A model generated the notes under the pieces. It was not told the DNA's origin, searched no databases, and saw only the letters and a program-made list of their open reading frames with translations. Source: an uncultured Hyphomicrobiales bacterium (lineage in GTDB: Bacteria; Pseudomonadota; Alphaproteobacteria; Rhizobiales; JAJFHR01). Taken from it: a DNA stretch of 42,601 nucleotides. Made by a program: the position numbers and the translations under genes. This document shows, one piece after another, positions 4,834-37,904 of this stretch. Within the stretch, counting starts at the first letter, position 1. Each line of letters opens with the position of its first letter. The stretch spans positions 1-42,601 of the forward strand of contig CAZVAZ010000003.1 of NCBI GenBank assembly GCA_964625235.1, given 5' to 3'.

Positions 4834-4905
4834 TTCCAGCGTCACTATCTGCCAGTATCTCCTCATTGAAGTTGATCCATGCAATTTTACAAGGAGGTAT
4901 TTCCA

Positions 4906-7794
4906 ATGTCTGATTCCACAATTCGAAACAAATATGGTGAAGTGGTTCATATGGGCCATCCAGCTGGCGTAGAGCAGGAGGCCGGTTTTGCCGGTGCCAC
5001 ACCTTCACAGATTGCCGACAAATATATCCAGTCACAATTGGCAACAATGGGCTTGCTTAAATCTCGTTTGGGAAATGACGAGGCCAGTCTTGCTGATCTC
5101 GAGCGTTCCAATGATCCGATTATCTCTGTTAGCAAGGAAAAGCGAATCGTAGGCGCGACGGTTGTTGTTTACGAACAATCTGCCATGGGTTTGCCCGTGT
5201 TTAACGCAACGATAGGTGTCTTGATCGATGATACCTCCCAATCGGTTTTATCGATGCAGTCTTCCGTGCATGCCACAATAAAAGTCATAAACCCCTCGGC
5301 AAAGAACAACGATCTGGATGGCGAAGAAAAGCCATTGAACAATACGGCGCTTAAGAAGGTTCTGGGATTTTCTCTATCTAAAATGGACAGTGGCCGCATC
5401 CATCGCCAGGTTATCTATCGCTTTGAGCCGGAAGAGCGTAGCGACGACTTTGAGGATTATGACGACGGCGGTTTCGAGCATCCGGGTTTGATAACGCTGG
5501 ATCTGCCGCCCGTTCCCAAAAATATCATTAACGGGGCGCATTACATTGTGAATGAAGTCCTGTTCAAAGCCCCGATGGATGAAAATGAAGCGTCTGTAAA
5601 CTGGCGAGCTCTGGTTGAGCCTGAAACAGGTGCGGTGCTGTATGTCCGTGCGCTTGTCGCAGGGGCAACAGCAATGATTTATGAACGCGATCCCCAAACT
5701 CAAAGCGGCGCATCAGTGACGGGGGCTTCTTCAAATGCTTTGTTGAACCCGTTCCGCACCTCTGTGACACTTGATGGATTGATTGGTGCCACACCGCAGC
5801 CATTATCCGGTGAATTTGTGGAAATTGTTGACCTAAGCGCACCTACTGTTGCGCCTCCGGTTGGCGCAAACCCGGCCAGTGCAATGAATTTCAACGTTCG
5901 CACCGATGATTTTTCGGCCGTTAATGCCTATTACCATTGCGATAATCTGTTCCGCACAATGCAGGATTATGGGCTTAATGTTACGTCGTATTTCAGCGGA
6001 ACAACCTTTCCTGTGCCTGTTGATCACCGTGGAAAAGGGGGCGCGTTGAATGCGGATGCACCGGGTAATGCAAGTGGTGACGGTATGGGAATGTTGCGCT
6101 TTGGTGTGCTGCAACCCGGTCAAACCGTCGGCATTGCGACATCCAACCGTGTCGTTTGGCATGAGTTTGGCCACGGCCTGCTATGGGATAATGTCAGCAG
6201 CCCGAATTTTGGTTTTGCGCATTCTGCCGGTGATGCACTGGCAGCGATTTTCAATGATCCCGGCAGCAATGAGCCTGATCGCGGTCATTCATTTCCCTGG
6301 ATAAATGAAGGAACACCGATTAGCCGGCGTCATGATCGTACAGTTGCGGGGGGATGGGCGTGGTTCGGTCCCAGCTGGAACACCCAATATGGCGGTGAGC
6401 AAGTCCTGTCTTCGACGCTGTATCGTATTTACCAGTCTCTTGGTGGTGCGTCATCGAATATCAGCAAGCAGAACCGTGCATCGGAGCTGACAACGTTCCT
6501 TATCTTCAAGGCAATCGGTTTGCTGAGTTCGACAACCCAGTTCCCGGAAGTGTACGAAACGGCTCTCGAAAATGCCGATAAAACCACTTCTAATTTCAAA
6601 GGAATACCCGGGGGAGCCGTGCACAAGGTTATCCGCTGGGGCTTTGAAAAGCAGGGACTGTTTCAGCCAAATGCTGCGCCCGGCCAGGGTAACAACGTGA
6701 TGACAGAGGGCAATCCGCCTGATGTTGATGTTTACATTGATGACGGCCGCAATGGCGAATATCAATACCTGGCCAATCACTGGTCCTGTCAAGACATGTG
6801 GGTGCGGAATTCAGCCGATGGCGGTCTGGCGCATCAACAGCCACTCGTTGGCTTGACAAACTACATGTATGTGCGGGTTAAAAGCCGCGGCATGCAGGAT
6901 GCAAACGGCGTCACCGTTGATGCATATCACGCTCTGCCGGGCACCGGTCTGGCTTTTCCCGATGACTGGGTGCCGATGGCCACGCCAACGCTCCCGGCCG
7001 CAGCACCGATTGCGCCCGGTGGAGAAACCATCGTTGGACCGTTTGCCTTTGTACCAACGCAGGTCGGACACGAATGCCTGATGGCAATCGCCCATGCCAA
7101 TGGTGATGCGGGAAATGATACAACGATTATGGGTACCGTTCCCGAGCATCGTCTGGTGCCGTTTGACAACAATATAGGTCAGCGCAATGTAAACCCGATC
7201 TATCCATCCTTCCGCTGGTTGATTAAATGGCTGGGTAAACACCTGATCTGGATTCGTAATCCGTTCAAAAAGCATGTCGTATGCGAAATTCGGATAAAAC
7301 TTCCGAAATTCCTGCGCAATCTCGGCTGGGATATGAAGGTCGTATCCAGGGGCGGCGCCAAGTTCGAACTGGCACCGCGTGATCGCCGCAAAATTGTCCT
7401 GTCCATCAACCCCGGTGAAGAATTCACGCCGGATATGGTGAAACGAGCAATAGCGCAGGGTGATCACGAGATCGCCATTGAAACCTATCTCGATGGTGAG
7501 CTGTCGGGCGGCATGTCCTATCCTCTGTCGTTTGATGCAATACCGGTGGATGACAAACCAACCGAAGATGATGACCGTGAACGCAAATGCAAATGCAAAT
7601 GCAAGTGCAAATGCAAGTGTGAGGAGGAGCGCAGAAAGTCATCCAAAAAACTCCCGCGCTCAACAATTGAGAAAATCGTCAACATACTGGACGAGGAAAA
7701 CCACCCGATCACAGATCAAAGTGCTGATCAAATGGTGATTAAACGCAGTGTTAAAACTGTCCGGATTGAAATCGATTTTGATGATGACGAGTAG
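4906..7794 (+). CDS. Large M36/M4-like (gluzincin) zinc metallopeptidase with propeptide-like N-terminus and beta-rich C-terminal domains
   Basis: AAGGAGG RBS before ATG 4906. FTP/PepSY-like segments (VVYEQSAMGLPVF; WRALVEPETGAVL), VNAYYH, VVWHEFGHG, FAHSAGD. No obvious signal peptide. Confidence 0.75.
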   Translation: MSDSTIRNKYGEVVHMGHPAGVEQEAGFAGATPSQIADKYIQSQLATMGLLKSRLGNDEASLADLERSNDPIISVSKEKRIVGATVVVYEQSAMGLPVFNATIGVLIDDTSQSVLSMQSSVHATIKVINPSAKNNDLDGEEKPLNNTALKKVLGFSLSKMDSGRIHRQVIYRFEPEERSDDFEDYDDGGFEHPGLITLDLPPVPKNIINGAHYIVNEVLFKAPMDENEASVNWRALVEPETGAVLYVRALVAGATAMIYERDPQTQSGASVTGASSNALLNPFRTSVTLDGLIGATPQPLSGEFVEIVDLSAPTVAPPVGANPASAMNFNVRTDDFSAVNAYYHCDNLFRTMQDYGLNVTSYFSGTTFPVPVDHRGKGGALNADAPGNASGDGMGMLRFGVLQPGQTVGIATSNRVVWHEFGHGLLWDNVSSPNFGFAHSAGDALAAIFNDPGSNEPDRGHSFPWINEGTPISRRHDRTVAGGWAWFGPSWNTQYGGEQVLSSTLYRIYQSLGGASSNISKQNRASELTTFLIFKAIGLLSSTTQFPEVYETALENADKTTSNFKGIPGGAVHKVIRWGFEKQGLFQPNAAPGQGNNVMTEGNPPDVDVYIDDGRNGEYQYLANHWSCQDMWVRNSADGGLAHQQPLVGLTNYMYVRVKSRGMQDANGVTVDAYHALPGTGLAFPDDWVPMATPTLPAAAPIAPGGETIVGPFAFVPTQVGHECLMAIAHANGDAGNDTTIMGTVPEHRLVPFDNNIGQRNVNPIYPSFRWLIKWLGKHLIWIRNPFKKHVVCEIRIKLPKFLRNLGWDMKVVSRGGAKFELAPRDRRKIVLSINPGEEFTPDMVKRAIAQGDHEIAIETYLDGELSGGMSYPLSFDAIPVDDKPTEDDDRERKCKCKCKCKCKCEEERRKSSKKLPRSTIEKIVNILDEENHPITDQSADQMVIKRSVKTVRIEIDFDDDE
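7583..7618 (+). repeat. In-frame hexamer tandem repeat GCAA(A/G)T x6 encoding (KC)6
   Basis: gcaaat gcaaat gcaaat gcaagt gcaaat gcaagt; the protein reads RKCKCKCKCKCKCEEE. Confidence 0.95.
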
Positions 7795-7804
7795 TTAAAC
7801 AGAT

Positions 7805-7836
7805 CGGAAGCCGGGTGACCGGCTTCCGCTTTTTTT
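7805..7836 (+). terminator. Rho-independent terminator
   Basis: CGGAAGCCGG-gtga-CCGGCTTCCG followed by a T-run, 10 nt after the stop codon. Confidence 0.85.
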
Positions 7837-7850
7837 CAGAGGAGGATTAA

Positions 7851-8402
7851 ATGTCAAAGGACAAAGACCCCACGGTTGGCAATCGCAAAATGCCGGTCCT
7901 GATCGCACTGTTTGCCATCATTTTCATTGCCATCTGGATTTGGTGGTTGTGGTGGCCGTATCCGATTACGACTGTATATCTGTCTCGCCATGCCGAGAAA
8001 CTTAACGCCACAGTCAACACACCACTTTCCGCTGCGGGAGAGATCCGCGCCGGAAAATTGGCACATGTACTGAAAGATGAGGGCATTGATGTTGTTTTTG
8101 TGACCGAGTTTGAGCGAACCCAAAAAACCGGAGAACCAACTGCCCTACAGGCTGGTGTCGCCATGATTCAATATGATTCTGGTGCACCGCAGGACCTGGT
8201 TGACACAATCCTTGCAGATTATGCCGGTGAACAGGTCCTGGTGATCGGACATTCAAACACGCTCGACAATATTGCCGCAGAGCTTGGAGTTTCGGGCGTC
8301 CCGGAGCTGAATGAAACGCAGTTCGACCGCTTGTTTATCGTGCATCGTTTTGGGTCATCGGCTCATCTGAACCGACTTCGCTACGGTTTGGAAACGCCCT
8401 GA
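7851..8402 (+). CDS. Histidine phosphatase family protein with N-terminal membrane anchor
   Basis: VYLSRHAEK, PLSAAGEIRA, RTQKT, VLVIGHSNT; hydrophobic N-terminal helix; GGAGG RBS. Confidence 0.85.
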   Translation: MSKDKDPTVGNRKMPVLIALFAIIFIAIWIWWLWWPYPITTVYLSRHAEKLNATVNTPLSAAGEIRAGKLAHVLKDEGIDVVFVTEFERTQKTGEPTALQAGVAMIQYDSGAPQDLVDTILADYAGEQVLVIGHSNTLDNIAAELGVSGVPELNETQFDRLFIVHRFGSSAHLNRLRYGLETP

Positions 8403-8431
8403 TTGTGACAGTGTGACAAAGGAGTTTGGAA

Positions 8432-10528
8432 ATGGCTGACAAATCAATAAAACGTGCCGTAATCATGTTGGATCAATTCACCGGGGAGTTGCGCAAAGAC
8501 GATGGCACCCTGATGGGCATCGACCTTTGGCCCGAGGTGGAAACGAGTATTGATGCACTCACGCGCGAAGGGGTCGAGGCAATTCTGGCCATTCCTTCTG
8601 CGGATTCAACGGAAGAAATACAAGACTTGTCCGATTGGGTGCCCGGGTTGAAAATTATCGCCATCACGCGGGAATTTTCCTATGCCAAAAACGAAGATTT
8701 TGCATCCGGTGCACGGTTGCAGACGGGAGATGCGCAAACCGCATTTGTGTCGAGTGATCGCCGTATGCGAGGAGATGCGGCACGCGCAGGCTTCAAACCC
8801 GCCCCCCACATCAGCCTGCTGCCGATGATGATGAAGGGTAAACGCATTGAGGCGGTACGCCTGACTGGACTGCGTGATACATTATGGAAGTATGGACAAT
8901 CCGACGAAGTAGTACCGATGCATTTTCAACCAACGCCGGAAGGAACGAATTGGGCTTTGATAGCGCTGGTCTCACCCGAAGCGCAAGCCAGAGCGGTAAT
9001 GTTGAAGTTTTCAATACAATCCCTGCCATATGATCCTATGATGGAGGATCTGCTGTGGGCGCGTATCGATTTAGACAGCAAAGAAACCCGAAAGGAGCTG
9101 ACAAAACGCAAAATACTGCACGCAGAGCCGGGACAGGTTCTACTGGCGCTAAAGCCGCAGGAAAATGCCCAGGCTCTCGATATTCACGGTGGCCATGGAC
9201 ATTTTGAACTGCTGATACCGGACCCCAACCTGCTGCGTGCAGCGCCGATTACCTCCGCAAGCCGCGGCCCGTTGGAAATTGACAAACTGCCGGAAGGGAT
9301 ACTCGAAAAGGTCAAAATCGACCCGCTGGTCAGAGACATTTTGATCCTGACAAAACCTTCTTGCGCCGCCGTAACTGCGTGCTACGAGGATGATCTGGAT
9401 CGCTATACCGGCGTGACAGACCTCGATTCGTCTGGCCCAATCATCTCACGCCACTCCGCACATCCCGATAATAAACGGGTGGAGACCGCGTTACTGAGCG
9501 ACCTGAGGGCTATGGGCTATTGCCCCTATCGGCACAACTTCATCCATGCGGGCGCAACACATTCTAACATTATCGCAGATCTGCCGGGGAACGGTGTGTT
9601 TCGCATAAAGGCCGAAATACTTGCCAAATATCGTAGAATTTTGCGCAAAAGGCCGTTTTCCAACCCGCTATCGAACTGGCAAAGTGAAATGGACGAGCTT
9701 GCGAACATGGAGTGGTTCCAAAGTGATGCACTGATAAAAATGCCAGAGCTGGAAATTCGCCGCCGAATCGAGAAAATCTTTCGCCTGCAACCGTGGTATC
9801 CGTGGTGGAAGAAACTCTGCCTTCTTTATGGCTACGGTGCCGACATTATTGTCGTCGGCTGCCACTTGGATTCCACAGCAGGATTTGAGCCGGTCTATTC
9901 TGCATCTACAGACGCAGCACCAGGACGCGATGATAACGGCTCCGGCCTTGCTGCCATATTATCGATGGCACGGTATTTTCGCAGCCTGAAAGGCAAACTG
10001 ACCCATACTGTTCGCTTCTGCTTTTTTAATGCCGAGGAATCGGGATTGATCGGCTCAAAAGCCTATGCTGGAAAGATGAAGTCGCTGAGGGCACCGATCC
10101 GTGCCGTTATCTGCGCCGACATGATGGGGTATAATTCGGATACCAATCGTATATTCGAAGTCCATGCAGGTTATACTGATCCGGCTATCCGCGACCTCAG
10201 CGTGCCTGTTGCCAACGAAATCGCGAGCTCAGCTGCGGCTTATGGACAACTGGCACCGGCACAGATTTATAAGGGAACCAGTTGGAGTGGCGCGCCTGAT
10301 CGTGATATTTATGATGGCGGCATCAATCGCTCGGACCATGCAGCGTTCCATCAACAGGGCTACAGTGCGGTTCTGGTCAGTGAGGATTTCTTTGCCAACC
10401 TGGCGTCTGAGCCGGGTGCGGACCCCAATCCAGATTACCACCTTCAGTCAGATTATTTTGTTGATCTGGATTATGCCAAAGACATTACCTGCGCGATTAA
10501 CAAAGCGGTGATCAATTTAGCGATTTGA
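8432..10528 (+). CDS. M28 family metallopeptidase with a long N-terminal extension (possibly degenerate HAD-like)
   Basis: VGCHLDS, PGRDDNGSG, FFNAEESGLIGS, DMMGY, RSDHAAF and PDYH are the M28 zinc and catalytic motifs. No signal peptide. TTG 8426 is an alternative start. Confidence 0.85.
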   Translation: MADKSIKRAVIMLDQFTGELRKDDGTLMGIDLWPEVETSIDALTREGVEAILAIPSADSTEEIQDLSDWVPGLKIIAITREFSYAKNEDFASGARLQTGDAQTAFVSSDRRMRGDAARAGFKPAPHISLLPMMMKGKRIEAVRLTGLRDTLWKYGQSDEVVPMHFQPTPEGTNWALIALVSPEAQARAVMLKFSIQSLPYDPMMEDLLWARIDLDSKETRKELTKRKILHAEPGQVLLALKPQENAQALDIHGGHGHFELLIPDPNLLRAAPITSASRGPLEIDKLPEGILEKVKIDPLVRDILILTKPSCAAVTACYEDDLDRYTGVTDLDSSGPIISRHSAHPDNKRVETALLSDLRAMGYCPYRHNFIHAGATHSNIIADLPGNGVFRIKAEILAKYRRILRKRPFSNPLSNWQSEMDELANMEWFQSDALIKMPELEIRRRIEKIFRLQPWYPWWKKLCLLYGYGADIIVVGCHLDSTAGFEPVYSASTDAAPGRDDNGSGLAAILSMARYFRSLKGKLTHTVRFCFFNAEESGLIGSKAYAGKMKSLRAPIRAVICADMMGYNSDTNRIFEVHAGYTDPAIRDLSVPVANEIASSAAAYGQLAPAQIYKGTSWSGAPDRDIYDGGINRSDHAAFHQQGYSAVLVSEDFFANLASEPGADPNPDYHLQSDYFVDLDYAKDITCAINKAVINLAI

Positions 10529-10745
10529 GGGCGATGTCGATATCTTGAAAAGGCGGATAATTGCCAACGGCATATGGGGTACTACGCCCGTGGTCGTTCA
10601 AATTGTAACGTTCAACATTTTAATTCGTTAAATTATTGAGTATAGTTTCTATATTGAATAAATTCATGCGTATGCACTCAATAATACTGGAGTTTTTTAA
10701 TTTCGATAACGATAGAGGAAAACCGCTGGCACGTTTGGAGGTGTG

Positions 10746-11435
10746 ATGGAGCAACGTAGTACAAATCTACTATACACCGTAAGTTTTTTTTCAGAAATGG
10801 GTGATCAGGAGATCAATCAGATTGGTGATTTATGCGATTGGCAACGATTTTCCAAAGGCAAAGAAATCATCGGCCAAACAGAAAAATCTACGGATATATT
10901 TTTTGTTATTGAAGGCCATGTAGCAGCAAAAAACTATTCACCTGATGGAAAAGAAGTAAACTATACGAAAATTGGACCCGGGGAAATGTTTGGTGAGTTT
11001 TCTGCCATTGACGGGCAATCCAGGTCAACGTCGATTGAAACTCTTGAAGAGAGTTTTATCGCGAGGATGAATTCAGCATTATTTCGCGAACTGATCGTTT
11101 CCCATCCTTCTTTGGGATTGAAACTGGCTGACCACCTGGTTCAGAAAAACCGCTACCTAACTCAGCGCGTTTTTGAATTCAGCACTCTTGCGGTCCGGTA
11201 TCGGGTTTGTGCAGAGCTGATCCGGATGATCGACACTTCGCAGACAGACGGTATTACCTGTTCTATCGAGCCAGCACCATCGCATTATCAAATTGCAACC
11301 AGAATAAGCACTCATCGTGAGGCCGTCAGTAGAGAGCTGGAAAGACTTTCTTCATCCGGCATACTTGAAATAGGCAGACAGAAAATCAAAATCCTGAATA
11401 TTCCGAAGCTCAAAAGCCTGATAGAAACTTTCTGA
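10746..11435 (+). CDS. Crp/Fnr family transcriptional regulator
   Basis: GPGEMFGEFSAIDGQSRSTS cNMP pocket; C-terminal HTH SHYQIATRISTHREAVSREL; GGAGGT RBS. Confidence 0.92.
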   Translation: MEQRSTNLLYTVSFFSEMGDQEINQIGDLCDWQRFSKGKEIIGQTEKSTDIFFVIEGHVAAKNYSPDGKEVNYTKIGPGEMFGEFSAIDGQSRSTSIETLEESFIARMNSALFRELIVSHPSLGLKLADHLVQKNRYLTQRVFEFSTLAVRYRVCAELIRMIDTSQTDGITCSIEPAPSHYQIATRISTHREAVSRELERLSSSGILEIGRQKIKILNIPKLKSLIETF

Positions 11436-11549: not shown

Positions 11550-12185
11550 GTGGCCAGCAAAGATTCACAGCAATATTGCATGCGCCCAATGAGCCCTGAA
11601 GACCTTGACGTTGTTTCATTGTGGTTTGAGCACTTAGCTGATCTTTCTTTATTCGACCGTAATTCTCCGGTACCAATTAACAAGACCATCATTGAGCGAA
11701 GCTGGAAGGAGGTTTTGACAGCTGCTGAACCTCGCCGTGGTTATTGGTTCACAATTGACAATGCTGCTGGTGATGTTTTGGGAATTGTCGGAATTGAAAG
11801 CATAAATTATGTAAACGGCGATGGCGTTCTTGCCGTTTATTTATCGGAACAGATACGAAGGAAGGGGTTGGGTATTCGCGCAAGTTGCTTACTTCTTGAT
11901 CTCGCATTTGAACAGCTGCGCTTGAACCGGGTTACATCATATTTTCGCGCTGACAATGAAGCCTCGCAAAAGCTAACCGCGATGGTCGGCTTTTCTCAAG
12001 AAGGAGTAATCCGCCAGGGGTGGTTTGCAAGTGGAAAGAGCTTTGATGTTCATATGGTTGGTATTTTGAAACGAGAGTGGTCGAAAACCCGCAAGAAATT
12101 GGAAAAGCAGCTGGATGCGTCAATCCAGTTGAAATTTGGCCGGTCGCCATCGGGGGCCAGAGTATGGCCAGAACAATCGGCCTGA
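11550..12185 (+). CDS. RimJ/RimL-type GNAT acetyltransferase
   Basis: RRKGLG acetyl-CoA motif, LAFEQLRLNRV, NEASQKL...GFSQEGVIRQ, DVHMVGILKREW. Confidence 0.88.
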   Translation: MASKDSQQYCMRPMSPEDLDVVSLWFEHLADLSLFDRNSPVPINKTIIERSWKEVLTAAEPRRGYWFTIDNAAGDVLGIVGIESINYVNGDGVLAVYLSEQIRRKGLGIRASCLLLDLAFEQLRLNRVTSYFRADNEASQKLTAMVGFSQEGVIRQGWFASGKSFDVHMVGILKREWSKTRKKLEKQLDASIQLKFGRSPSGARVWPEQSA

Positions 12186-12269
12186 GAGTTTAGGAGCTGG
12201 GGGTTATATCGCAGTGTTTGGTAGTGTCGCAAATCACTTGTATTGTGTGGCGTTGGAAAGTTTTGCGTC

Positions 12270-14033
12270 ATGAATGATAGCAAAAACAGGCCCCCTAGCC
12301 GCAGTTTGCAGGCAACGCTGTTTGCCGACATTGTCGGCTATAGCCAACTTATGGGTGAAGATGAAGTCGCAACCCAGAGAATTGTCAAAACCTACGTCGG
12401 TCTATTTGAGAATTATTGCCGCAAACATGAGGGTAAAATCGAACAGGTCCGCGCTGATGGCATATTCGCGATGTTTAACAGCGCAGTGAATGCAGTTAAC
12501 TGTGCAATGGATACACAACAAGCCATGGCCGAACTCAACGAAACTGCCGAGCGACCGGTCCAGTTCCGTGTTGGTATCAATCTTGGCGAAGTGCTCCGTG
12601 ATGACACGGGCGCTTATGGCGAAAGCCTGAATGTTGCCGCAAGGCTTGAGAGCATAGCCGAACCCAGTACTGTCTATGTTAGTGGAGCGGTCTATCAGCA
12701 GGTAAAGAACAGAATAAATTTTGGCTATGAATGTCTGGGCAGCCAGAAGTTAAAAAATATCAATGACCCTGTAGAAGTGTTTTGTGTCCATCGGGAAATC
12801 GAAGGTGTGACGATGGCCGCGAGCCCGCGCATCATGACCCGTCAACAACAAGCAGCGATACCTTCCAAACCGTCTGTTGTCGTGCTGCCGTTCATGGACC
12901 AGGGCGGAGACCCTTCTGAAAGCTGGTTCGTTGATGGCATCACAGAAGATATCACTTCCAATTTGTCGAAATTTCAAAACCTTTTCGTCATCGCCAGAAA
13001 TTCAGCGTTCCTCTACAAGGACCGCAACATCCGGCCGCAGCAGGTCGCCCGGGAGCTTGGTGTGCGCTATGTAGCGCAAGGCACCGTCCGGAGATCGGGC
13101 AATAGAGCACGGATTTCCGTGGAACTCGTTGATGCGGAAACCGAACGTACGATCTGGGGTGAGCGCTATGATCGTAATCTTGATGATATTTTTGACGTCC
13201 AGGATGAAATCGCCAATACGGTTGTCGCAGCAACCGCTGTTCAGATCGAGACGTCGGAAGCGGGGCGTTCAAATCTGCTGCCACCTGCAGACATGGCTGC
13301 TTATGACCTGGTGCTTCAAGGTCAGCAATATGTTTTCAAATACCGCCGTTCAGACAATCATGAGGCACGAAGATTATATCAGGCAGCCTTTGATGTGGAT
13401 TCCCGCTATGCCAGAGCTAATGCGGCGATCTCGCGAACCTTGAATATTGATTGGCGTTATGCATGGACTGAGTCCCGGGAATCAGCCCTTGATCAGGCGC
13501 TGGAGTTCGCTCAAAATGCCATTGCTTTCGATGCAACCGATGCGCGCGGGTTTGGTGAGCTGGGGTTTGCGCATCTCTATCGCAAAGAACATGACGCCGC
13601 CCTTGATGCCTATGGGCGGGCTTTGCGGCTCAATCCCAATGATGCAGATCTGATGTCGGATATGGCTGATGCCCTGTGCCATTGCGGGCGCTCAGACGAG
13701 GGCGTAACGCTGCTCGAAAAAGCCATGCTGCTCAATCCGTTTTATCCCGACCAGTATCTATGGCATCTGGGTGGCGCTTATTTTAATCTGACGCGATACG
13801 AAGATGCAGTTGTGGTGTTGCAAACAATGCACAATCCGGCAGAGGGCCGGCGTTTGCTTGCGGCGTGTTGCGGACATCTGGGGCGTATAGATGAAGCCAA
13901 GAATCATGCAGCAAAAGTACTTGAAGCACATCCGGACTTCTCGCTGACGTCGTGGGCAAACGTCCAGCCTGATAAATTTCAGGACGATGTTGAACACTTC
14001 ATTGAAGGGTTGCAAAAAGCGGGCCTTCAATGA
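12270..14033 (+). CDS. Class III nucleotidyl (adenylate/guanylate) cyclase with TolB-N-like and TPR domains
   Basis: LFADIVGYS, ADG, FRVGINLGEV, NVAARLE; PSVVVLPF...DGITEDI...FVIARNS; TPR-like C-terminus. Start placed at ATG 12270. Confidence 0.92.
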   Translation: MNDSKNRPPSRSLQATLFADIVGYSQLMGEDEVATQRIVKTYVGLFENYCRKHEGKIEQVRADGIFAMFNSAVNAVNCAMDTQQAMAELNETAERPVQFRVGINLGEVLRDDTGAYGESLNVAARLESIAEPSTVYVSGAVYQQVKNRINFGYECLGSQKLKNINDPVEVFCVHREIEGVTMAASPRIMTRQQQAAIPSKPSVVVLPFMDQGGDPSESWFVDGITEDITSNLSKFQNLFVIARNSAFLYKDRNIRPQQVARELGVRYVAQGTVRRSGNRARISVELVDAETERTIWGERYDRNLDDIFDVQDEIANTVVAATAVQIETSEAGRSNLLPPADMAAYDLVLQGQQYVFKYRRSDNHEARRLYQAAFDVDSRYARANAAISRTLNIDWRYAWTESRESALDQALEFAQNAIAFDATDARGFGELGFAHLYRKEHDAALDAYGRALRLNPNDADLMSDMADALCHCGRSDEGVTLLEKAMLLNPFYPDQYLWHLGGAYFNLTRYEDAVVVLQTMHNPAEGRRLLAACCGHLGRIDEAKNHAAKVLEAHPDFSLTSWANVQPDKFQDDVEHFIEGLQKAGLQ

Positions 14034-14047
14034 CGAGGGATAAATGC

Positions 14048-14584
14048 TTAATCCTTGTTGCCGCCGCTAAGTCTCGCACCTGATACACGAGCACCAGACA
14101 CTCTGGCACCTGAAACTCTGGCACCTGATACCCGCGCGCCCGAAACCCTGGCGCCGCTGACGGCAACACCACCACCGCCGTCGCCTTCGGGATCAAGCAG
14201 AAGCTGGCTCAACGGTCCGCTGGACATATCCAGGCGAATTGAAAAGTCTGCCTGATCGTAATTCCAGGTTCTTAGATCACTGGAAAAATTAAAATCCTGC
14301 GCCGCCATAGCGGTGCTCGCAGCGGTTTTGTTGTCCAGTTTCTTGCCCGCTCCATGCACCAGAAGAATTGTCGGCACTTCCAGTTCACAATATTTACCCG
14401 CATAGCTGTAACCATATATCCGAGCAAAGCCGGCGTTGGCGCCGTTGTTAAGCTGGTCTGCGAGAAAGTGATTGTTGCCGGATGCTTTTGCCGGATCGTT
14501 TGCGCTGTTTTTTTGAATTTTCAGATCATCAATTTGAAAGCCGATGAGAACGATTTTCGACGCACTAAGTAAAGTTTCACCCAT
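14048..14584 (-). CDS. 178-aa protein with C-terminal (VSGAR)x6 repeat; candidate YcaO/TfuA substrate or precursor
   Basis: GGAGG RBS before ATG 14584. Globular-looking N-terminus, DPEGDGGGG linker, then repeats. Last gene of the ycaO-tfuA-peptidase run. The substrate role is inferred. Confidence 0.75.
   Translation of the reverse strand: MGETLLSASKIVLIGFQIDDLKIQKNSANDPAKASGNNHFLADQLNNGANAGFARIYGYSYAGKYCELEVPTILLVHGAGKKLDNKTAASTAMAAQDFNFSSDLRTWNYDQADFSIRLDMSSGPLSQLLLDPEGDGGGGVAVSGARVSGARVSGARVSGARVSGARVSGARLSGGNKD
14072..14161 (-). repeat. 15-bp-period coding repeat, 6 x VSGAR followed by LSGG
   Basis: Codons GTC AGC GGC GCC AGG / GTT TCG GGC GCG CGG / GTA TCA GGT GCC AGA / GTT TCA GGT GCC AGA / GTG TCT GGT GCT CGT / GTA TCA GGT GCG AGA; all differences are synonymous. 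Confidence 0.97.
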
Positions 14585-14749
14585 TTTTTCCTCCAGAATT
14601 TCACCCACCCCCATGGCCGGAATCAGTGCGAGCTTTATTAGATAATTATACTATCACAACATTAACTGACCTCATGCAAGTATCTTCTACCCAGGAAGAT
14701 GCGGTGGCATGGTGCAATCCAGGAACAGATGACTGTTCCCGGGCGTGTT

Positions 14750-15985
14750 TTAATTGCCCAAGCCCGGTTTTATCAGGCCAATTTCACGTTTGCGAAAATT
14801 ATTCGAAATAATATGGTTGAAACGCCCGCCAGTAATGAGCCTGTCGACATCCTGCAGTGCGAGGTTGACCCCCTGATAGGTAAGGGTTCTGGCATCGAGT
14901 AATCTCCATGTATCTGCCAGATAGGTGCCAAGAAAATCACGCGCCAGCAACAAAGCTTCCTTGAAACCCTGTGGATCACGTTGATAAAAGCCGTCAAATT
15001 TCTCCTGCATAATTATGCCATAGCTGCTATCGCCTTCAAGCTTGTCAGAAAGGTCTTCCATTTCACGCGAAACCAGTCCGCCGTCCAGCAGATGTTCGTG
15101 AAATATGTCCACAAGAATATCAAATACGGCGCCGGTCAGCGGTTGAGACAGCTTGTGTTCATCGTCCCAGTTGCCGATGAAATCTGATAATACTGTGTCG
15201 TTGGCAGCCAGCCTGATTTGTCCGCGCTCCGAGTTTTCAGCGAAGCGGCTGAGCCGGTTCAACGTGTATAGATTTCCACGGGTGTTTTCCAGCACTGCAT
15301 TGACGACAGAATCGAAATGTAACGATGTCAGTAGTGCAACGAGATCGCCGGCAGAATCGTGAAATCCGTAATATTCCGGATTGTTTTCGTCCTGTGCGGG
15401 CATGCCAACCTCGCTGTAGATAATTCCGTGCCCGATTTCGTGCGCGATAACGTCAAAATTCAGGAAGAAGGCACTATAATTTTCATCCACCTTAATGCCG
15501 CCGGTTTCAAGGAAACCCCAACCCATGAAGGCATTGTCCACCGTGGGTAAAATAGAAAGCTCAAGCCGATCATAATCGCCTCTGAAATGCCAGTCTATCT
15601 GGCTGTCGAAATAGCGCTCCCAGACGTCGAGTGTAAACCGGGCACACCCAAACAGATGGGCGGCTTCAAATTCACGGGTGCCCGGTTGGAGATGGTCAAA
15701 ATGCCCGTCGGGGCCGGGAAGAGCTGGCGGATGAACGTCGGCGTGCCACGGAGGCAGGAACATAAACGGCTGTCCGTTTTCATTTTCATGCGCGCCGTAA
15801 TGCAGCTGTTTGTCAACCGGATAGACTGTGTACATGCGATTGTCCGACGGGCCCGGCTTGAGCGACCCCGCTGGCGATGACACATAGACTGTTTCCGGTT
15901 CCAGAGCTGTACCCATATCGGGAGATTGCGGATAAAGGCGGAACCGGGTACCATCTGATTCTTCTTGTCCCACCTGTATCACCAT
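14750..15985 (-). CDS. M4/M36-like HExxH zinc metallopeptidase (no signal peptide)
   Basis: DNAFM, FDVIAHEIGHGII, GFHDSAGDL; starts 6 nt after the tfuA stop. Confidence 0.75.
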   Translation of the reverse strand: MVIQVGQEESDGTRFRLYPQSPDMGTALEPETVYVSSPAGSLKPGPSDNRMYTVYPVDKQLHYGAHENENGQPFMFLPPWHADVHPPALPGPDGHFDHLQPGTREFEAAHLFGCARFTLDVWERYFDSQIDWHFRGDYDRLELSILPTVDNAFMGWGFLETGGIKVDENYSAFFLNFDVIAHEIGHGIIYSEVGMPAQDENNPEYYGFHDSAGDLVALLTSLHFDSVVNAVLENTRGNLYTLNRLSRFAENSERGQIRLAANDTVLSDFIGNWDDEHKLSQPLTGAVFDILVDIFHEHLLDGGLVSREMEDLSDKLEGDSSYGIIMQEKFDGFYQRDPQGFKEALLLARDFLGTYLADTWRLLDARTLTYQGVNLALQDVDRLITGGRFNHIISNNFRKREIGLIKPGLGN

Positions 15986-15991: not shown

Positions 15992-17329
15992 TCAATTGTC
16001 TGCAACACATTGCACGTAAAGGTATTCGCGAACAAGCATTTGGTAAAATTCTTCTCGGCTTTCCAGGCCGATATCACTGATATGGGTGTCGATTTCCGCC
16101 GGCATTTCCTGGCCCATCCTATGGCAAAAATACCAGTTTAACAATGCTATTTGCGGCACCCCTATGTCTTCGGGGCGCAGATTTGAGCGCCCGGATTTTT
16201 TAAGCATTCTATCCTTGGACCCTGCACGTTGTGAGAGGCTGGAATAATCACCATTCAGTTTCAGAATTTTGAGCACACTGTGTGTAAAGGAGCGAGGTCT
16301 GGTATCAAGAATACTCCTGATCCGGATTTCTTCGTCCAGCAGATCTTCCAGTTCCCGGGCACTGAGGTCGTTTTGTTGCAACCATCGATCCAGGTCTTCG
16401 CGCTTAAGCAGATTTTGTTGTCGCCGGAATGTATTGACCTTGCTGGCGTGGACGTGACTTTCGATGGAAAGATGTTGGCGCACTGAATCCTGAACAGCGA
16501 ACTCACGTAAAAGCGCTGCATCGCGCGCTGCATTGAAGTTGTCCGGCTGCAGTCTCAATTCATCCAGAATAAACCGGGTGTTAATGCCGGTATGGGGGGT
16601 GCCGTGCCATTGCGAAACAGCGCGGTCCCACAGGTTGGTCCACTCAAAGTCGAACAATGCTGTGTGTGGTTCTCTGTCGGTTTTAACTGTCTCGCGCATC
16701 GCTTCCAGCATCGCCACTGCGTCGATATGCTTTTGATCAACACGGCTGTTCTGCAGCCAGGTTTCAAACTTCTGCGCGTTTGGGGCGTCTAGTACATGCG
16801 CGCCTGCAAATGCGATCAGCGCCTCCCATGTCCGTTCACTGTAGAGGCGTGATTTTGCGAATTCACATAACGCCTGCCTGTCAATTTCTGTCAGGATGTT
16901 TTCGCCGACAGCAAATTCCAGCGTGGCACGAATATTTACCATCGGTTCACACAGCGGTATAAAACCTAATTCAGCCGGCCCGTGAATGATGGCAACTTCG
17001 TCATCATCCTCCAGTTTTCCGCATCTGTAATCCTCGTAGATTCTACCCACACCTTTCATGCCGAATTCGGCAAGTTCTGCAGCCCGCAAAGCGCCGATAC
17101 TTGACGCCCCGAAGACGTGTACGCCTTGTGCCAGTGCCCACAGAATTTCCTTGTGCCAGATTGCCGCAACACCATTAAAGTAGCCATCGATGATGCCGAT
17201 GCACTGCGGTTCCAGGGCCATCGCGCGGTAGACGTCACCTTGAGCTGCAGGTGGCAGACAAACAGCATCAATAATCGAAAGTACGTCAGCTTCGGGTATG
17301 GTCGGGCCTATGAAGATCACAACTGTCAT
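15992..17329 (-). CDS. tfuA: TfuA-like protein with a C-terminal extension of about 220 aa
   Basis: VIFIGPT, LPPAAQGD, IGIIDGYF, IWHKEILWAL, GASSIGALRAAEL, GMKGVG, DDDEVAIIHGP, MVNIRATL; overlaps the ycaO stop (ATGA). Confidence 0.93.
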   Translation of the reverse strand: MTVVIFIGPTIPEADVLSIIDAVCLPPAAQGDVYRAMALEPQCIGIIDGYFNGVAAIWHKEILWALAQGVHVFGASSIGALRAAELAEFGMKGVGRIYEDYRCGKLEDDDEVAIIHGPAELGFIPLCEPMVNIRATLEFAVGENILTEIDRQALCEFAKSRLYSERTWEALIAFAGAHVLDAPNAQKFETWLQNSRVDQKHIDAVAMLEAMRETVKTDREPHTALFDFEWTNLWDRAVSQWHGTPHTGINTRFILDELRLQPDNFNAARDAALLREFAVQDSVRQHLSIESHVHASKVNTFRRQQNLLKREDLDRWLQQNDLSARELEDLLDEEIRIRSILDTRPRSFTHSVLKILKLNGDYSSLSQRAGSKDRMLKKSGRSNLRPEDIGVPQIALLNWYFCHRMGQEMPAEIDTHISDIGLESREEFYQMLVREYLYVQCVADN

Positions 17330-24813: not shown

Positions 24814-26343
24814 TCAATGAAAGTATTGTGCGCCACGGATATTGTGATGGGTAATACCAGGCTCGTCCGTGGCGCGGGTTCGAGGTTGGCGATCCAGACC
24901 ATTCTTGAGAATGGAATGCAGGGATGTGTAAGAGCGGGCATTGATCTCCAAGGCACGCTCACAAGCGGCCTCAAGGCGCTCACGGCCAAAGGTTTTGGCC
25001 AGCCTCAAAATGCCAAGACAGGATCGGTATCCTTGTTCGGGGTGGCGGCGCTCGCGCATGATAACCTCAACATAGACTTCGGTGTTGGTGCCGATCCGTG
25101 CGGCCTGCCTGCGTATGCGTTCAGGTGTCCAATCCGCTTTGAACCGGTGATGGGCAGGCATATGATCTTTGTGGGTGGAATGCTGACGATTGCCCGAGGT
25201 GCGATGATGGGCAGCGACCCGTTTGCCTTTAAAATACACCTCTACAGTGCGCGCGGTGATCCGGGCCCATAATTTTTGCTTCAACAATTGATGGGGCACG
25301 GAGTAGTAATGCCGCCTGATATCGATGTGGTAATCCAGACCGGCGCGGCACTGTTTCCATTCGGCATAAACATAAGGCTCGATCGGCAAAGACTTCAGAG
25401 CAGGCTTGTCGAGCTTCTCAAACAAATCCCGTCGACTGGTCCCCAGATGCCGGGTCACTTTGTTGTTCAACTGATCCAACAACGGGCGAATGGCAGCATT
25501 CAGTTCATCAAGGCCGAAGAAGCACCGGTTGCGAAGCCGTGCCATAATCCAGCGCTCCACCAAAAGCACAGCGCTCTCGACTTTTGCCTTGTCCTTTGGC
25601 TTTTTTGGCCGGGCGGGAACAATAGCAGTATCATAATGGCGGGCCATATCGCCATAGGTACGGTTGATCGCCGGATCATAAAAACAGGCTTTGGTTACAC
25701 CGGCCTTCAGATTGTCCGGGACCACCTGTGCGGTCACCCCGCCAAAGAAATCAAAGGCCCGCACATGGCTCGAGACCCAATCAGGCAGTGTTTGCGTCCA
25801 ACTGGCTTCGACATAGGTGTAATTGGATGCTCCCAGGGTGGCGACAAATAATTGAGCCGTTCTCACTTCACCCGTCTTGGGACAAACCACATCCATTGTC
25901 GCCCCGGCATAATCCACAAACAGCCGTTCGCCTGCCGGATGACGTTGACGCATCACCGGCGATAGTCTGCCTTCCCAACGCGTATAAAGTTCGCAGAACC
26001 GGCTGTAGCCATATCCATCGCGATAAACGGATCGGTATTCTTCCCAAAGCAGAGAGAGTGTCACGCCCTTGCGGCGCAACTCCTGGTGCAAATACGCCCA
26101 ATCCGGCTGGGGATAGGAGCCACTGACTTCACCAGCCGTGCGCGCAAACAGCATCCGCTCAAGATCGCCATCACTCAGATCATCAGGCAATGGCCACGCC
26201 AGACCGGCCCCATCAGCGCGCCGCAAATAATCCGATACAGTCGCTCGCCCCAAAGACAGGCTGAGTGATATTCGACGCCCCGATAATCCATCAGCACGAA
26301 GCCGCAGGGCTTCTCGTATCTTCCGCATTGGCAATCTCTTCAT
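24814..26343 (-). CDS. istA: IS21-family transposase
   Basis: MRKIREALRL HTH, LLWEEY...GYGYSRFC, LFVDYAG, VPDNLK, KPKDKAKVE, YYSVP. Confidence 0.96.
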   Translation of the reverse strand: MKRLPMRKIREALRLRADGLSGRRISLSLSLGRATVSDYLRRADGAGLAWPLPDDLSDGDLERMLFARTAGEVSGSYPQPDWAYLHQELRRKGVTLSLLWEEYRSVYRDGYGYSRFCELYTRWEGRLSPVMRQRHPAGERLFVDYAGATMDVVCPKTGEVRTAQLFVATLGASNYTYVEASWTQTLPDWVSSHVRAFDFFGGVTAQVVPDNLKAGVTKACFYDPAINRTYGDMARHYDTAIVPARPKKPKDKAKVESAVLLVERWIMARLRNRCFFGLDELNAAIRPLLDQLNNKVTRHLGTSRRDLFEKLDKPALKSLPIEPYVYAEWKQCRAGLDYHIDIRRHYYSVPHQLLKQKLWARITARTVEVYFKGKRVAAHHRTSGNRQHSTHKDHMPAHHRFKADWTPERIRRQAARIGTNTEVYVEVIMRERRHPEQGYRSCLGILRLAKTFGRERLEAACERALEINARSYTSLHSILKNGLDRQPRTRATDEPGITHHNIRGAQYFH

Positions 26344-26424
26344 TGGGGTCCTCTCCGTTCAAAATGAACGAAGAATAACCACGTTAAGGATCGCCTCGCC
26401 GCAGCAAAATCTCAGGCAAATACA

Positions 26425-26520
26425 GGGTGGCCGGATGCCCCGGTTTCCCCGGCCGGATTAAATCGGTATGGGTGGCCGGATGTTATCGGAATCAGTGGCC
26501 GGATAACCCCGGAATACGCA
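26425..26520 (-). repeat. IS21 left end with multiple transposase-binding repeats
   Basis: Minus strand begins TGCGTATTCC and carries four ATCCGGCC(AC) copies. Confidence 0.88.
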
Positions 26521-26637
26521 ATACGGAAGCAGAAAAAATCCTTATCTAGACACATACCGCCATCAAAATATAGCCAGAGTCAGTGACAAACTGGCTGCGT
26601 GATGATCACTTAAGCGATGAAAAAACGGCGGACAGGT

Positions 26638-27204
26638 CTAACCTCTAACACTCATGATGGGCAGACTTGGATCGTTGGCATCAGATCGTCGCCAGTACGC
26701 CATGCAGGAGCGGCTCCCCAGTTCAGTCAGATCAAGTATGTTTGAATCCGATTGTGAAGTCGCTAACAATCCCATTTGGACAAGTTTTTGAACAGGTCCA
26801 TCTTGAAACCCGCGATCATTGATTGATCGGCCATTCTTGTTGAGAGAGAACCAACGGATTTTCGGTTCGTCGTCAGAGCGGATTAAACTATCAGGAACAA
26901 ACGTTGGTTTGGTCTGAAAGCTGCTGAAGCTTAAGGTCATATGCCACAACACATCCCGAGATCGTGGCGGTATGAGTATCCAATCAACACAGTCCTCAGG
27001 CTCTTTCACACTCGCGACAACATCCCCAGACTGCCGTCCTAGCTTGTAGGCGGCCACCATCGCTCGTTCGATTTCACCGATGGTGTTTTGAGATCTACCC
27101 ATTCGATTTGCCACACGATCAAGCGAAAGGATACGCCTCGCCTCTTCTTTGAACTGAGCGCGTAAAATTGGATCAAATTTTTTTCCAGCCATTATTCGAC
27201 ACAT
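26638..27204 (-). CDS. Hypothetical protein
   Basis: 188-aa ORF co-oriented with the GTPase operon; possible C-terminal winged-helix-like segment (KLVQMGLL...LTELG). The start may be 27192. Confidence 0.6.
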   Translation of the reverse strand: MCRIMAGKKFDPILRAQFKEEARRILSLDRVANRMGRSQNTIGEIERAMVAAYKLGRQSGDVVASVKEPEDCVDWILIPPRSRDVLWHMTLSFSSFQTKPTFVPDSLIRSDDEPKIRWFSLNKNGRSINDRGFQDGPVQKLVQMGLLATSQSDSNILDLTELGSRSCMAYWRRSDANDPSLPIMSVRG

Positions 27205-27283
27205 TTCCTAACGAGGTCACTACAGAATTTCCAAGAAGACAGATATCGTTAGTATGACCAATCTGGGGGCCGACTCACGAGAT

Positions 27284-29338
27284 TCAGTATCCTTTTAAGA
27301 TATGATTTATTATCGCGTATCGCTTTTGCAAATGAGGATCCTCCGCTTCCTTTAGAATGCCTTTTACCGCTTTGAGATACTGGCGCCCGCGATAACTATC
27401 ATTTGCTATGGAAACGAGAACTGCGAACTGTTCATCTATAGACGTCAGAGTCGCAAATGCGAGTGCGGGCCACCTATCTTCGACACAGTGTTCGATCAAT
27501 CCTTTGCGTAGACGATAGCATTTGTCCCACTCCTGCCAAAACATCGGCCAGGGTAACTTATCCTCCAATTGACTCCAAGATTTGTAGGACAATCGATTTC
27601 TTGCCAAAGCGTTATCAGTCGTCTCAAACCCAAATTCTGCCAGTTCAGCTGCGTTGTAGACTTCGTCATCAAAAGAACGTCTCAAAAGATAGGCCCGCAA
27701 CGTTAGTTCATCATCATCAGACAAGACGTTTCTGGTGTTCTCAATAGCGCTTAGCCACGGGTCCCTTTCCGAGTTGCTAGGGACATCTTCAGGAGAATAG
27801 AGTTGGCTAACCGCAAGAAGAAAATGCCGGTCGAGTTTGTCTACCGACGAGAAGAACGTTCCCAAACCACTAGGCGTTCCTATCGTCTCTAGCCATTGTT
27901 TAAGGTCTTCAGCGGTAATGTCTTTATCCGCATAGGTTTGATGCAAAGCAATCAGCAAGTCCAACCGGTTAATACGCACCAGAAGAGAGTCAGCGAGATC
28001 AATTCTTTTTGCGATTATTGCAGCTCGCAGGACTTCCTGATGAAAATCTAACTCGTTGAGCTTGTCGAGTACATTAGTGTGACTTTCATCAATAAGTGCC
28101 CAAGTCAAAGAACTCTGAAGCAGTTCCGAGCGGAGTTCGAGGGCTGTCGACAGCAATCCGGAAACTCTCTTGGCCGCCGTCAAAATATCCTTGATAGGAA
28201 CGGACGCTAGGGTTTCCAGAAATATCTCTTCTCCGATCTTGCCGGACCGGCTCATTTTCAAAAACAGCTTTGGCTGAGCCTTAAGTAAAGTTTGCCCAAA
28301 ACGTTTTGTACCATCGTCCAGCCGTCGCCTGTCTAATAAGTCAATATGGTCAATCATGTATGAAAGGACAGGTCGGCTGAGACCCGAGTGCTGTTTGAAA
28401 AGGCGTCTGACGACAATACCTTTCAGTGCACGCGCTGTGTTTGGTTCAGAAGGAGCAGGGATGAGCTTTAGTGCGGCTTCAATGTCAACTTGAGCCTGTG
28501 GCGCTCCTTCCATTAAGTTGAAGATGCTACACAGAATTGCGAAACTGCTTCTACCGTTTTGCAGATCACTCCCAGCGTGAAACAAGAACTGCCGCAATCC
28601 ATCCGATTTTGACATCGCAAGGTCTTCTATTGCAGTTCGCAGCCAAGATGGCTCCTTATCAGGAGAATTCGCATCGATCGCATTGGCAAACCGGCTCCGC
28701 ACACTCGGCATCGCTTTCGGTAAAAGTTGGAGATCAAAGAGGATATCTTTTGTCGATCTGTCTGCGGACGCCATTGTACAAAATCGAAATGACCGACGCA
28801 GCCGCGGCCATTGCTGTGCCCATAAAGCAAGAACCGCCTTCTCCGAGATCTCGGGATCGAGTTCGAAGGAGATGATTGGTTTCGAGGGATGCTGATAGAG
28901 TGCCGCAATAAGCGGTTTTGCAAATGATGCGACCTGCGGTTCAACCTGCGCAACCTGCTGCTCCTCATCGAACTTAACTGTATTCTTGTAAGATTCTGTC
29001 GTAGATTGCTCCGGCCTCCGGAAAAACTTTAGCAGATGTGTTGGGTCCACAGTGGTTGCGAGATCAACGAAATCAATCAAGAGTGTATGAGTCCAGACAC
29101 ATCCAGGCCGCGACATCTCAGGGGCCGGCCAAGTGCGAGCTAAGGCATACAGACCGGAAGTTAGAAGCGGATAGCCCGTTAAATAGCCTCGCGCCTCAAA
29201 GCGTGAGCCTGGACCTGAGGTGTCGCTGAGCACAAGAAGTGTCTTCGTATCTTGAGCGCTTAGCTCAATTGAAGATGCGACTGCCCGGTGGCCGTCTTTG
29301 TAACCATGCAGCGTTTGATTTAGCGTGACCGAATGCAA
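27284..29338 (-). CDS. GAP1-type (GTPase-associated protein 1, N1 domain) protein
   Basis: QTLHGYKDGHRAVASS...LSDTSG...YLTGYPL...YALARTWPAPEMSRPGCVWTHTLLI and LWAQQWPRLRRSFRFCT resemble GAP1-N1; follows two GTPases. Confidence 0.78.
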   Translation of the reverse strand: MHSVTLNQTLHGYKDGHRAVASSIELSAQDTKTLLVLSDTSGPGSRFEARGYLTGYPLLTSGLYALARTWPAPEMSRPGCVWTHTLLIDFVDLATTVDPTHLLKFFRRPEQSTTESYKNTVKFDEEQQVAQVEPQVASFAKPLIAALYQHPSKPIISFELDPEISEKAVLALWAQQWPRLRRSFRFCTMASADRSTKDILFDLQLLPKAMPSVRSRFANAIDANSPDKEPSWLRTAIEDLAMSKSDGLRQFLFHAGSDLQNGRSSFAILCSIFNLMEGAPQAQVDIEAALKLIPAPSEPNTARALKGIVVRRLFKQHSGLSRPVLSYMIDHIDLLDRRRLDDGTKRFGQTLLKAQPKLFLKMSRSGKIGEEIFLETLASVPIKDILTAAKRVSGLLSTALELRSELLQSSLTWALIDESHTNVLDKLNELDFHQEVLRAAIIAKRIDLADSLLVRINRLDLLIALHQTYADKDITAEDLKQWLETIGTPSGLGTFFSSVDKLDRHFLLAVSQLYSPEDVPSNSERDPWLSAIENTRNVLSDDDELTLRAYLLRRSFDDEVYNAAELAEFGFETTDNALARNRLSYKSWSQLEDKLPWPMFWQEWDKCYRLRKGLIEHCVEDRWPALAFATLTSIDEQFAVLVSIANDSYRGRQYLKAVKGILKEAEDPHLQKRYAIINHILKGY

Positions 29339-29341
29339 GGT

Positions 29342-30205
29342 TCACCTGACCAATCCGACGAAAGGAATCGTCAAGTCTTGCGTCTCGCCACTGTCTGTCA
29401 CGAGCTTTATGCGTTTGGACGGTCGATCGAGTTCCCTTAGCCGTTCCGCATCTTCAGAAGTTTCTTCTGGCTTTTTTGGATCATCATACATTCCGCCCTG
29501 CGCACTCAATCCACTGATTGTTAAAGTCCACTGGTCACCAGCAGAGGTTAGATATTGGTGTAGAAGTGGCAGGCGTTGCTTTAGATATTCTGAAGGCGAG
29601 AGGCCCTCGGCCTCGACGCGATCCCAAGCGGAAAGTAATACTGTCAGTGTTCGCGGGCCAACATCAAAAGGTTTTTCAGTGAGCAGCTGAAGTAGTTCGA
29701 CAATCTGAACCTGGGTTGGTGACATGCGCGGTTCCCAATCGACATCTTGACCTTCGTCCATTGGTAAACCCATACCTGCCATTTGTTCAGCTTCATCGAC
29801 TACCCATCTGGGACACTGAATTGTGTCAGCGTTGATGAACAACAATACATTATCACTCCGCAGCATTTCGACAATATCAGGCTCACATGTTCGATTTTCC
29901 CACATGTCGCGATAGGTCTCACCTGCGACATCTGGGAAATTAACCTGCAAGTCTAGACTGAAATCTCGCTTGGTCAGATTGATCTGGATATTCTGATTTC
30001 CCGTTTGTTGAGTTCGCTCTTGGACCTGTGCCTGTCGCCATCTGTTTGCGATATTTGTTAAATAGGCTGTGTTCCCGGCATGAAGGTTTTTCAAGCGCAG
30101 CTCGGTATCCTCTTCCTGCTCGGTGAGCAGATGCCAGAGAGCCGCTAGAAAGGTCGTTTTGCCTGAACCCGGAAGGCCAACAATCGAGATAGAAGGATGG
30201 CTCAT
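29342..30205 (-). CDS. TRAFAC GTPase (double-GTPase system)
   Basis: G1 GLPGSGKTT, G3 DVAGE, variant G4 SAWD. Confidence 0.85.
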   Translation of the reverse strand: MSHPSISIVGLPGSGKTTFLAALWHLLTEQEEDTELRLKNLHAGNTAYLTNIANRWRQAQVQERTQQTGNQNIQINLTKRDFSLDLQVNFPDVAGETYRDMWENRTCEPDIVEMLRSDNVLLFINADTIQCPRWVVDEAEQMAGMGLPMDEGQDVDWEPRMSPTQVQIVELLQLLTEKPFDVGPRTLTVLLSAWDRVEAEGLSPSEYLKQRLPLLHQYLTSAGDQWTLTISGLSAQGGMYDDPKKPEETSEDAERLRELDRPSKRIKLVTDSGETQDLTIPFVGLVR

Positions 30206-33628: not shown

Positions 33629-33680
33629 GGGGTTTTCTATCACGAAATATTCAAGGCTTGTAGCGATTTGATTAGATGAG

Positions 33681-34907: not shown

Positions 34908-34927
34908 TCATTGGTCCCAGCTAGCTC

Positions 34928-37808: not shown

Positions 37809-37904
37809 TCAGTTGTCGTTCGATGCTCCCAATATAGAAATATTTTGCATCAGAAACTCGGTTTAGATTGAAGTCCTGCTCTTGATAAATACAGCCTCTC
37901 GTAT

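Follow-up and report, generated by a model that had tools for sequence, protein, structure and literature searches.

The locus studied here raises the question of what keeps several copies of one pentapeptide, VSGAR, identical at the end of a small protein encoded beside a YcaO and a TfuA. The window, that is the whole stretch of 42,601 nucleotides from an uncultured Hyphomicrobiales bacterium, contains the features collected in Table 1. The repeat gene is the last one of a minus-strand YcaO-TfuA-peptidase operon, and the genes for the CRP-type regulator, the GNAT and the TPR cyclase lie on the opposite strand. Its likely start is the ATG at 14584; homologues begin at the same Met and a GGAGG is found five bases 5' of the ATG, while the longest open reading frame would start at 14614. 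A plus-strand ORF of 66 aa running over the repeat (14055-14255) was rejected as a shadow frame. Scanning the locus for promoters and terminators gave nothing above shuffles, and no shared motif was seen when upstream regions were compared by eye.

Table 1. Features of the repeat-tailed gene and of its module in the window
Feature	Coordinates	Strand	Basis
CRP/FNR-type regulator, accessory	10743..11435	+	domain match
GNAT acetyltransferase	11550..12185	+	domain match
Class III nucleotide cyclase with TolB-like and TPR region, convergent with repeat gene	12243..14033	+	domain matches
Repeat-tailed protein, 178 aa: beta-rich folded domain of ~130 residues, Gly-rich linker, repeat tail	14048..14584	-	ORF, homologue starts, model
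Seventh, variant unit LSGG	14060-14071	-	directly after sixth VSGAR unit
Six exact VSGAR units (candidate repeated core)	14072..14161	-	translation, codon test
Thermolysin/fungalysin-like (M4/M36 fold) zinc peptidase, HEIGH motif	14750..15985	-	motif, homologues, Foldseek
TfuA with C-terminal extension (weak TIGR04500/NifM-like match, far below cut-off)	15992..17329	-	PF07812 E 2.9e-45
YcaO; overlaps tfuA start; no C-terminal PxPxP	17326..18594	-	PF02624 E 4.8e-82

Translation of the minus strand from 14161 to 14072 gives six VSGAR units, followed by LSGGNKD and a stop. The initial annotation had claimed that the six units differ in DNA and agree in amino acids, and its codon counts were reproduced exactly: all six 15-mers are distinct, with four codons used for Val, four for Ser (one AGC, the rest TCN), three for Ala, four for Arg and just two for Gly. 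The mean pairwise difference between units is 4.87 nt, against 4.83 nt for a random draw from the codon usage of the window (p=0.50), and the silent sites are therefore saturated. At least 14 base changes are required, all of them silent, with a rough neutral probability of 9e-8 when changes are taken as independent. Units 3, 4 and 6 are apart by only 1, 1 and 2 nt, which may reflect more recent copying between some units. Compared with L001, the nearest named orthologue, the tail is fully identical over its first 30 residues (30/30) with 23 of 30 codons changed, and the N-terminal part, at 70% identity, is less conserved than the tail. The same holds between orthologues in general, where the tail is more conserved than the folded domain and close pairs keep their units in register. 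Exact arrays were found in 46 of 52 loci; all units are distinct in 35 of them and the mean observed/saturated ratio is 0.83, from which it follows that silent divergence is typical and that some arrays are more homogeneous than chance. The repeat tail is under strong selection at the protein level.

Family members were collected by a word search (49 other proteins) and by a profile search, from whose 186 clusters at E<=1e-30 the 150 best were taken. All 49 word-search matches end in a tail of this kind, two of them in an imperfect one; orthologues lacking the tail, or with unconserved tails, would have spoken against the early suggestion of a selected repeat. An exact tandem unit is present in 165 of the 199 proteins (the 49 plus the best 150 of 186), with period 5 in 133, period 7 in 26 and periods 4, 8, 9, 10 or 12 in the remaining six; the other 34, which include imperfect, truncated and single-unit tails, have none. 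Tails from the genome loci add periods 6 and 8. Units are mostly of 5-8 residues, exact copy number goes from 2 to 10, and some homologues have one unit. Among 250 sequences, a partly redundant set, 65 unit types were distinguished: Gly is present in 63 and missing from two, Ser is present in 48, 17 have no Ser, Thr or Cys and 13 no Arg or Lys. A V, I, L, M, F or Y residue is found in 63 of 68 unit types, while five are without a bulky hydrophobic residue. On the YcaO tree, sister loci have repeatedly exchanged Arg for Lys, or the reverse, throughout the array. Since register is conserved and yet such switches occur, the array is both old and turned over, and selected for uniform units. The view that the repeat is old and selected rather than a product of recent slippage thus held at the protein level, with saturated silent sites and no amino-acid change, but the exclusion of slippage was too strong, given the 2-10 copies and the array-wide switches. 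The unit is lineage-specific and internally uniform within an array. The tails of two loci, L038 and L051, appear frameshifted, and that of L032 may be.

The protein was modelled with AlphaFold on 122 sequences. A beta-rich domain is predicted at about residues 1-130, most blocks having pLDDT values of 77-96 and one loop 62-69, while the repeat tail, at pLDDT 45-54, is unstructured in the monomer model, with neither strands nor helix. No match at E<=0.001 was obtained in the Foldseek PDB and viral sets, an ESM Atlas search with the repeat protein gave no usable match, and the best row of a wide VIA fold search (Z 3.5, rmsd 6.4, to GroES) is below significance; the top three rows are GroES-type ring subunits, at Z 3.0-3.5 only. 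This absence of a fold match does not amount to a new fold. In homologues the folded domain takes inserts of 100-230 residues, a tolerance which makes it unlike a disposable leader. Inserts matching phage virion families, for instance tail fibre and head decoration, occur in 28 of 57 homologues of at least 240 residues, and the window's protein has no virion-type insert. A search of viral contigs confirmed no relative, and a simple hydropathy scan for a signal peptide found no long hydrophobic stretch in the repeat protein.

Conservation of the neighbourhood was evaluated on loci drawn from genomes (51), metagenomes (best 80 of 341), plasmids (3 of 48 records) and further genomes. These gave 152 distinct loci, of which the 67 with at least 5.5 kb upstream and at least 2.5 kb downstream were used for the synteny counts. 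The cyclase is present in 65 of the 67, the peptidase in 65, YcaO in 62, TfuA in 62, a GNAT (of either of two types) in 51 and the CRP-type regulator in 12. In 62 of 67 loci no more than 6 kb separates the repeat-tailed gene from ycaO-tfuA, which makes it a co-located candidate precursor by synteny only. Both the cyclase with its TPR region and the protease accompany the repeat gene more constantly than YcaO-TfuA does, a point missing from the initial annotation. Two Paracoccus loci (L042, L139) are without the peptidase and L146 is without the cyclase; L043, which was kept in the counts, has no YcaO, TfuA or cyclase; its peptidase is truncated, the genes upstream are unrelated, and the locus looks mis-joined. 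The position of the cyclase varies, being convergent, downstream or upstream, and in distant loci the cyclase is a STAND-type protein. In one locus (L072) two repeat-family matches, at 1163-1567 and 5559-5918, flank a single ycaO-tfuA-peptidase block. The module is widespread among bacteria yet patchy: it occurs in 11 of 400 other genomes of the order, in none of four in the genus, and in 21 of 301 genomes of the family around one Hoeflea genome.

We also built trees of the cyclase domain, the sensor region, YcaO, TfuA and the peptidase from 57 complete loci. All five require equal numbers of unit changes (18 counted exactly, nine by class), which indicates that the block is inherited whole and that the cyclase is a co-inherited member of it. 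The five trees tie, and co-variation does not single out the neighbour that contacts the tail. Unit type correlates more with the sensor region (rho 0.65) than with YcaO (rho 0.29), in comparisons whose pairs are non-independent.

Concerning the enzymes themselves, adjacent ycaO and tfuA genes with intact motifs, by which TfuA-YcaO thioamide RiPP loci are recognised, are found in the window. The Glu, Arg, Asp and Gln motifs of the ATP-binding type, which we take to be catalytic, are invariant in 26 aligned YcaO copies. The C-terminal extension of TfuA is missing in L008-L011, L014, L017, L022, L024, L026, L027 and L035 and is therefore dispensable. The peptidase has no Pfam match in the window; by Foldseek its fold is that of M36/M4 (E 1.2e-7), and it carries the HExxH motif, the downstream ligand and the thermolysin-like fold expected of M4/M36 gluzincins. 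HExxH is invariant in 43 aligned copies and no signal peptide is evident. FHES.xD is found in 114 of 120 peptidase homologues, while the window copy and its 98% twin read FHDS, so that Asp stands at the usual third-ligand Glu, a feature common to this one homologue in 120. The window copy also ends about 20 residues early, and in-frame text past its stop (14690-14760, minus strand) aligns with the conserved C-terminal tail of homologues; the 98%-identical protein ends at the same point, so the stop is not an assembly slip. Judging from the sequence, the Asp ligand and the early stop would both count against this copy being fully active. In the cyclase, both metal-binding Asp residues and the Asn/Arg pair are conserved in 55-57 of 57 copies, and divergence is lower in the TPR region than in the catalytic domain (mean distance 0.64 vs 1.03). 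Four ThiS-family matches were found elsewhere in the genome; among the conserved neighbours there is no ThiS/ThiF, ThiF/E1 partner, dehydrogenase or transporter. A Pycsar anti-phage system was considered and rejected: the cyclase and CRP match PADLOC models at the domain level only, the other module genes give 0 matches, and the locus does not combine a PycC cyclase with a cNMP-binding TIR or membrane effector.

Other features of the window and genome were recorded in their own right. Directly upstream of CRP-GNAT-cyclase, the region 4879-10528 of the plus strand encodes a fungalysin-like HExxH protein of 971 aa that has a (KC)5 run close to its end, together with a SixA-like phosphatase and an M28 peptidase of 700 aa, a set not conserved in other module loci. 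An integrative element at 23035-42000, separate from the module, carries an integrase, relaxase pieces, an S26 peptidase and a RovC-like regulator, and as cargo a double-GTPase conflict system (GAP1-N1, DO-GTPase1/2, GASH, GAAD-phosphoesterase), an Mrr nuclease and a SIR2-like gene. A second YcaO of the genome (L057, 2535-11265), without adjacent TfuA, lies behind a 966-aa ORF with lipase-, trypsin- and nuclease-like parts by eye; its locus faces a peroxidase-like ORF, a 170-aa ORF and a TPR regulator, all named by inspection.

One clade lacks the modifying enzymes at the locus. Rhizobium plasmids carry the cyclase, the peptidase, the repeat protein and a small ORF of no known family, with no ycaO-tfuA, and a TfuA search of two Rhizobium plasmids bearing the module gave no match. 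Three more loci share this layout, five in total. TfuA matches were found in 27 of the 29 genomes that carry the repeat gene. Two have neither a TfuA nor a YcaO match (genomes chosen with a 95% completeness filter, figures not shown), and one genome has both on another contig. With midpoint rooting, the five loci form a single clade (support 100) nested in the YcaO-bearing tree, which argues for one event of YcaO-TfuA loss and hence for one natural experiment. Their tails have stayed repeats, three imperfect and two exact, and in two Rhizobium copies 28 of 29 tail residues are identical with 14 of 27 codons changed. A repeat tail conserved after the loss of YcaO-TfuA has therefore a job without thioamidation. 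In this clade an ORF of 110-130 aa without Pfam match follows the repeat gene (L138 10600-10932, L140 9614-9955, L156 9604-9996, L167 9630-9989), and in one genome encapsulin (Linocin_M18) and amine oxidase-like genes lie upstream of the module (L167 667-4061).

The module is a real, selected case of the repeated-core TfuA-YcaO kind, whose closest known relative is the thiovarsolin pathway of Streptomyces varsoviensis (VarA, VarY, VarT). There a TfuA-YcaO pair has as its neighbour a precursor whose core is repeated, with one to five repeats in the family, and the products are short, N-acetylated, thioamidated peptides freed by proteolysis (PMC6511847). The VarA repeats are imperfect and the paper finds the cluster without a dedicated protease or acetyltransferase (PMC6511847), whereas here exact units stand behind a folded domain of 130 residues, and peptidase, GNAT and cyclase-TPR are co-inherited, with one clade doing without YcaO-TfuA. 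Leaders of TfuA-YcaO RiPPs are short and unstructured, in contrast to the predicted folded domain of about 130 residues, often with large inserts, found here. Archaeal YcaO-TfuA forms thioglycine in McrA, a thioamide at a protein Gly (PMC5589413). Gly is also the near-invariant residue of our units; unlike them, McrA offers a single site in an enzyme, with no repeats and no release. E. coli YcaO, which thioamidates uL16, recognises a folded surface and not a leader (PMC13063428). This is a precedent for the folded N-domain, although it involves no TfuA, a housekeeping substrate and no repeats. In RRNPP systems (Rap-Phr, arbitrium), lineage-specific peptides of 5-8 residues come from a precursor encoded beside a TPR receptor, and in Firmicutes these precursors are secreted and re-imported. 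Here, in contrast, the protein shows no evident signal peptide, a cyclase would form the output, and binding to the TPR region is putative. The open-access literature searched contains no description of the module and no match to the VSGAR motif. The consulted text of PMC8120280 does not mention this layout and one of its supplementary text files gave no match; its other supplements, with cluster and precursor lists, may include such loci. The part seen of PMC8939145 concerns other loci. The protein size of 178-400 residues probably hides the family from mining tools made for short precursors.

We propose, with odds that we put a little short of even, that the VSGAR array is the tail of a multi-core precursor whose units are thioamidated, cut to short peptides and sensed by the cyclase. 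The RiPP core was the best of the three readings offered by the initial annotation, YcaO-TfuA being adjacent. By analogy with known TfuA-YcaO chemistry, each unit would receive a backbone thioamide, probably on the near-invariant Gly or beside it. Thermolysin cleaves preferentially before hydrophobic residues, and the cytoplasmic M4/M36-like peptidase would cut before the one present in most units. The GNAT may cap the released peptides. The cyclase might then recognise these through its TolB/TPR region and, in the same cell, alter its cyclic-nucleotide output to a CRP-type reader; this is the step of which we are least sure. The thioamide would be a stabilising or specificity add-on, because one clade does without YcaO-TfuA, and identical copies could give several ligand molecules, or avid binding, per precursor. 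A more daring version, which we regard as a long shot, is a new intracellular peptide switch. In it the folded domain, which in many lineages has captured a domain of phage virions, would respond to a trigger, phage assembly for example; the peptidase would then release many identical peptides of 5-8 residues at once, protected by thioamides, to activate a TPR- or STAND-gated cyclase, and the units would be private keys co-evolving with the receptor.

It is also conceivable, though unlikely, that the locus is an ordinary multi-core thioamide RiPP, with units that end up as a small natural product, exported or toxic, and with a cyclase and a CRP that do no more than regulate the operon. The adjacency of YcaO-TfuA in 62 of 67 loci and the patchy distribution agree with this, and repeated cores, GNAT and protease fit the thiovarsolin steps (PMC6511847). 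However, a transporter is absent from the conserved neighbours, the tail is still conserved after YcaO-TfuA loss, and the cyclase is more constant than YcaO-TfuA. We are about as doubtful of a tail that stays attached, where the folded domain forms an oligomer or filament displaying many (thioamidated) units, or the tails polymerise in an amyloid-like way to activate the cyclase, and the peptidase activates or clears the assembly. The N-domain is predicted to be well folded, with long strands, and the GroES-type fold rows, the virion-type inserts, the STAND-type cyclases of distant loci and the loss of the peptidase from two loci would all suit such an assembly. On the other hand, units of 5 to 8 or more residues, together with single-unit homologues, are hard to fit to one register, the units are Gly/Arg-rich and soluble-looking, and the tail is unstructured in the monomer model.

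The remaining two explanations concern the unit itself. That YcaO forms oxazolines from the Ser of each unit, as in azole-type RiPPs, rather than thioamides, is in our opinion very improbable: Ser is found in 48 of 65 unit types, but the 17 without Ser, Thr or Cys do not provide each core with a suitable residue, TfuA is adjacent, and neither a ThiF/E1 partner nor a dehydrogenase is among the conserved neighbours. A C-terminal PxPxP marks azole-forming YcaOs, and it is absent in 25 of 25 YcaOs. The initial annotation had also suggested a pentapeptide-repeat beta-helix for the tail; we took up this reading as a DNA mimic or similar, co-opted at the locus. The likeness of A-R-V/L-S-G to PF00805 is superficial, and the weak match of the window tail reaches 17.7 bits, below the cut-off of 20.2, although the SGASL tails of homologues reach 43.7 bits, four of nine long homologues scanned pass the cut-off, the family profile matches designed beta-solenoids, and period 5 dominates among exact tails. 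Against a beta-helix, Val and not Leu or Phe occupies the core position, six plus one units make less than two coils, 41 of 211 tails have a period that is neither 5 nor 10, a strict pentapeptide pattern fits just seven of 211, and the AlphaFold monomer gives the tail no helix and low pLDDT. Because the unit changes across relatives while the tail is kept, we consider this reading practically ruled out.

Returning to a precursor whose peptides would be sensed by the cyclase, there is a fair chance that the module is a distinct peptide-cyclase signalling system. Class III cyclases of the TolB/TPR type are widespread in Alphaproteobacteria, and few of their ligands are known. For most TfuA-YcaO clusters of proteobacteria no substrate is known (PMC8120280). 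The locus pairs a named candidate TfuA-YcaO substrate with a candidate cyclase ligand. More than 60 variants of the unit occur in nature, and cultured, tractable strains exist that have lost YcaO-TfuA (Rhizobium) or the peptidase (Paracoccus) from the module.
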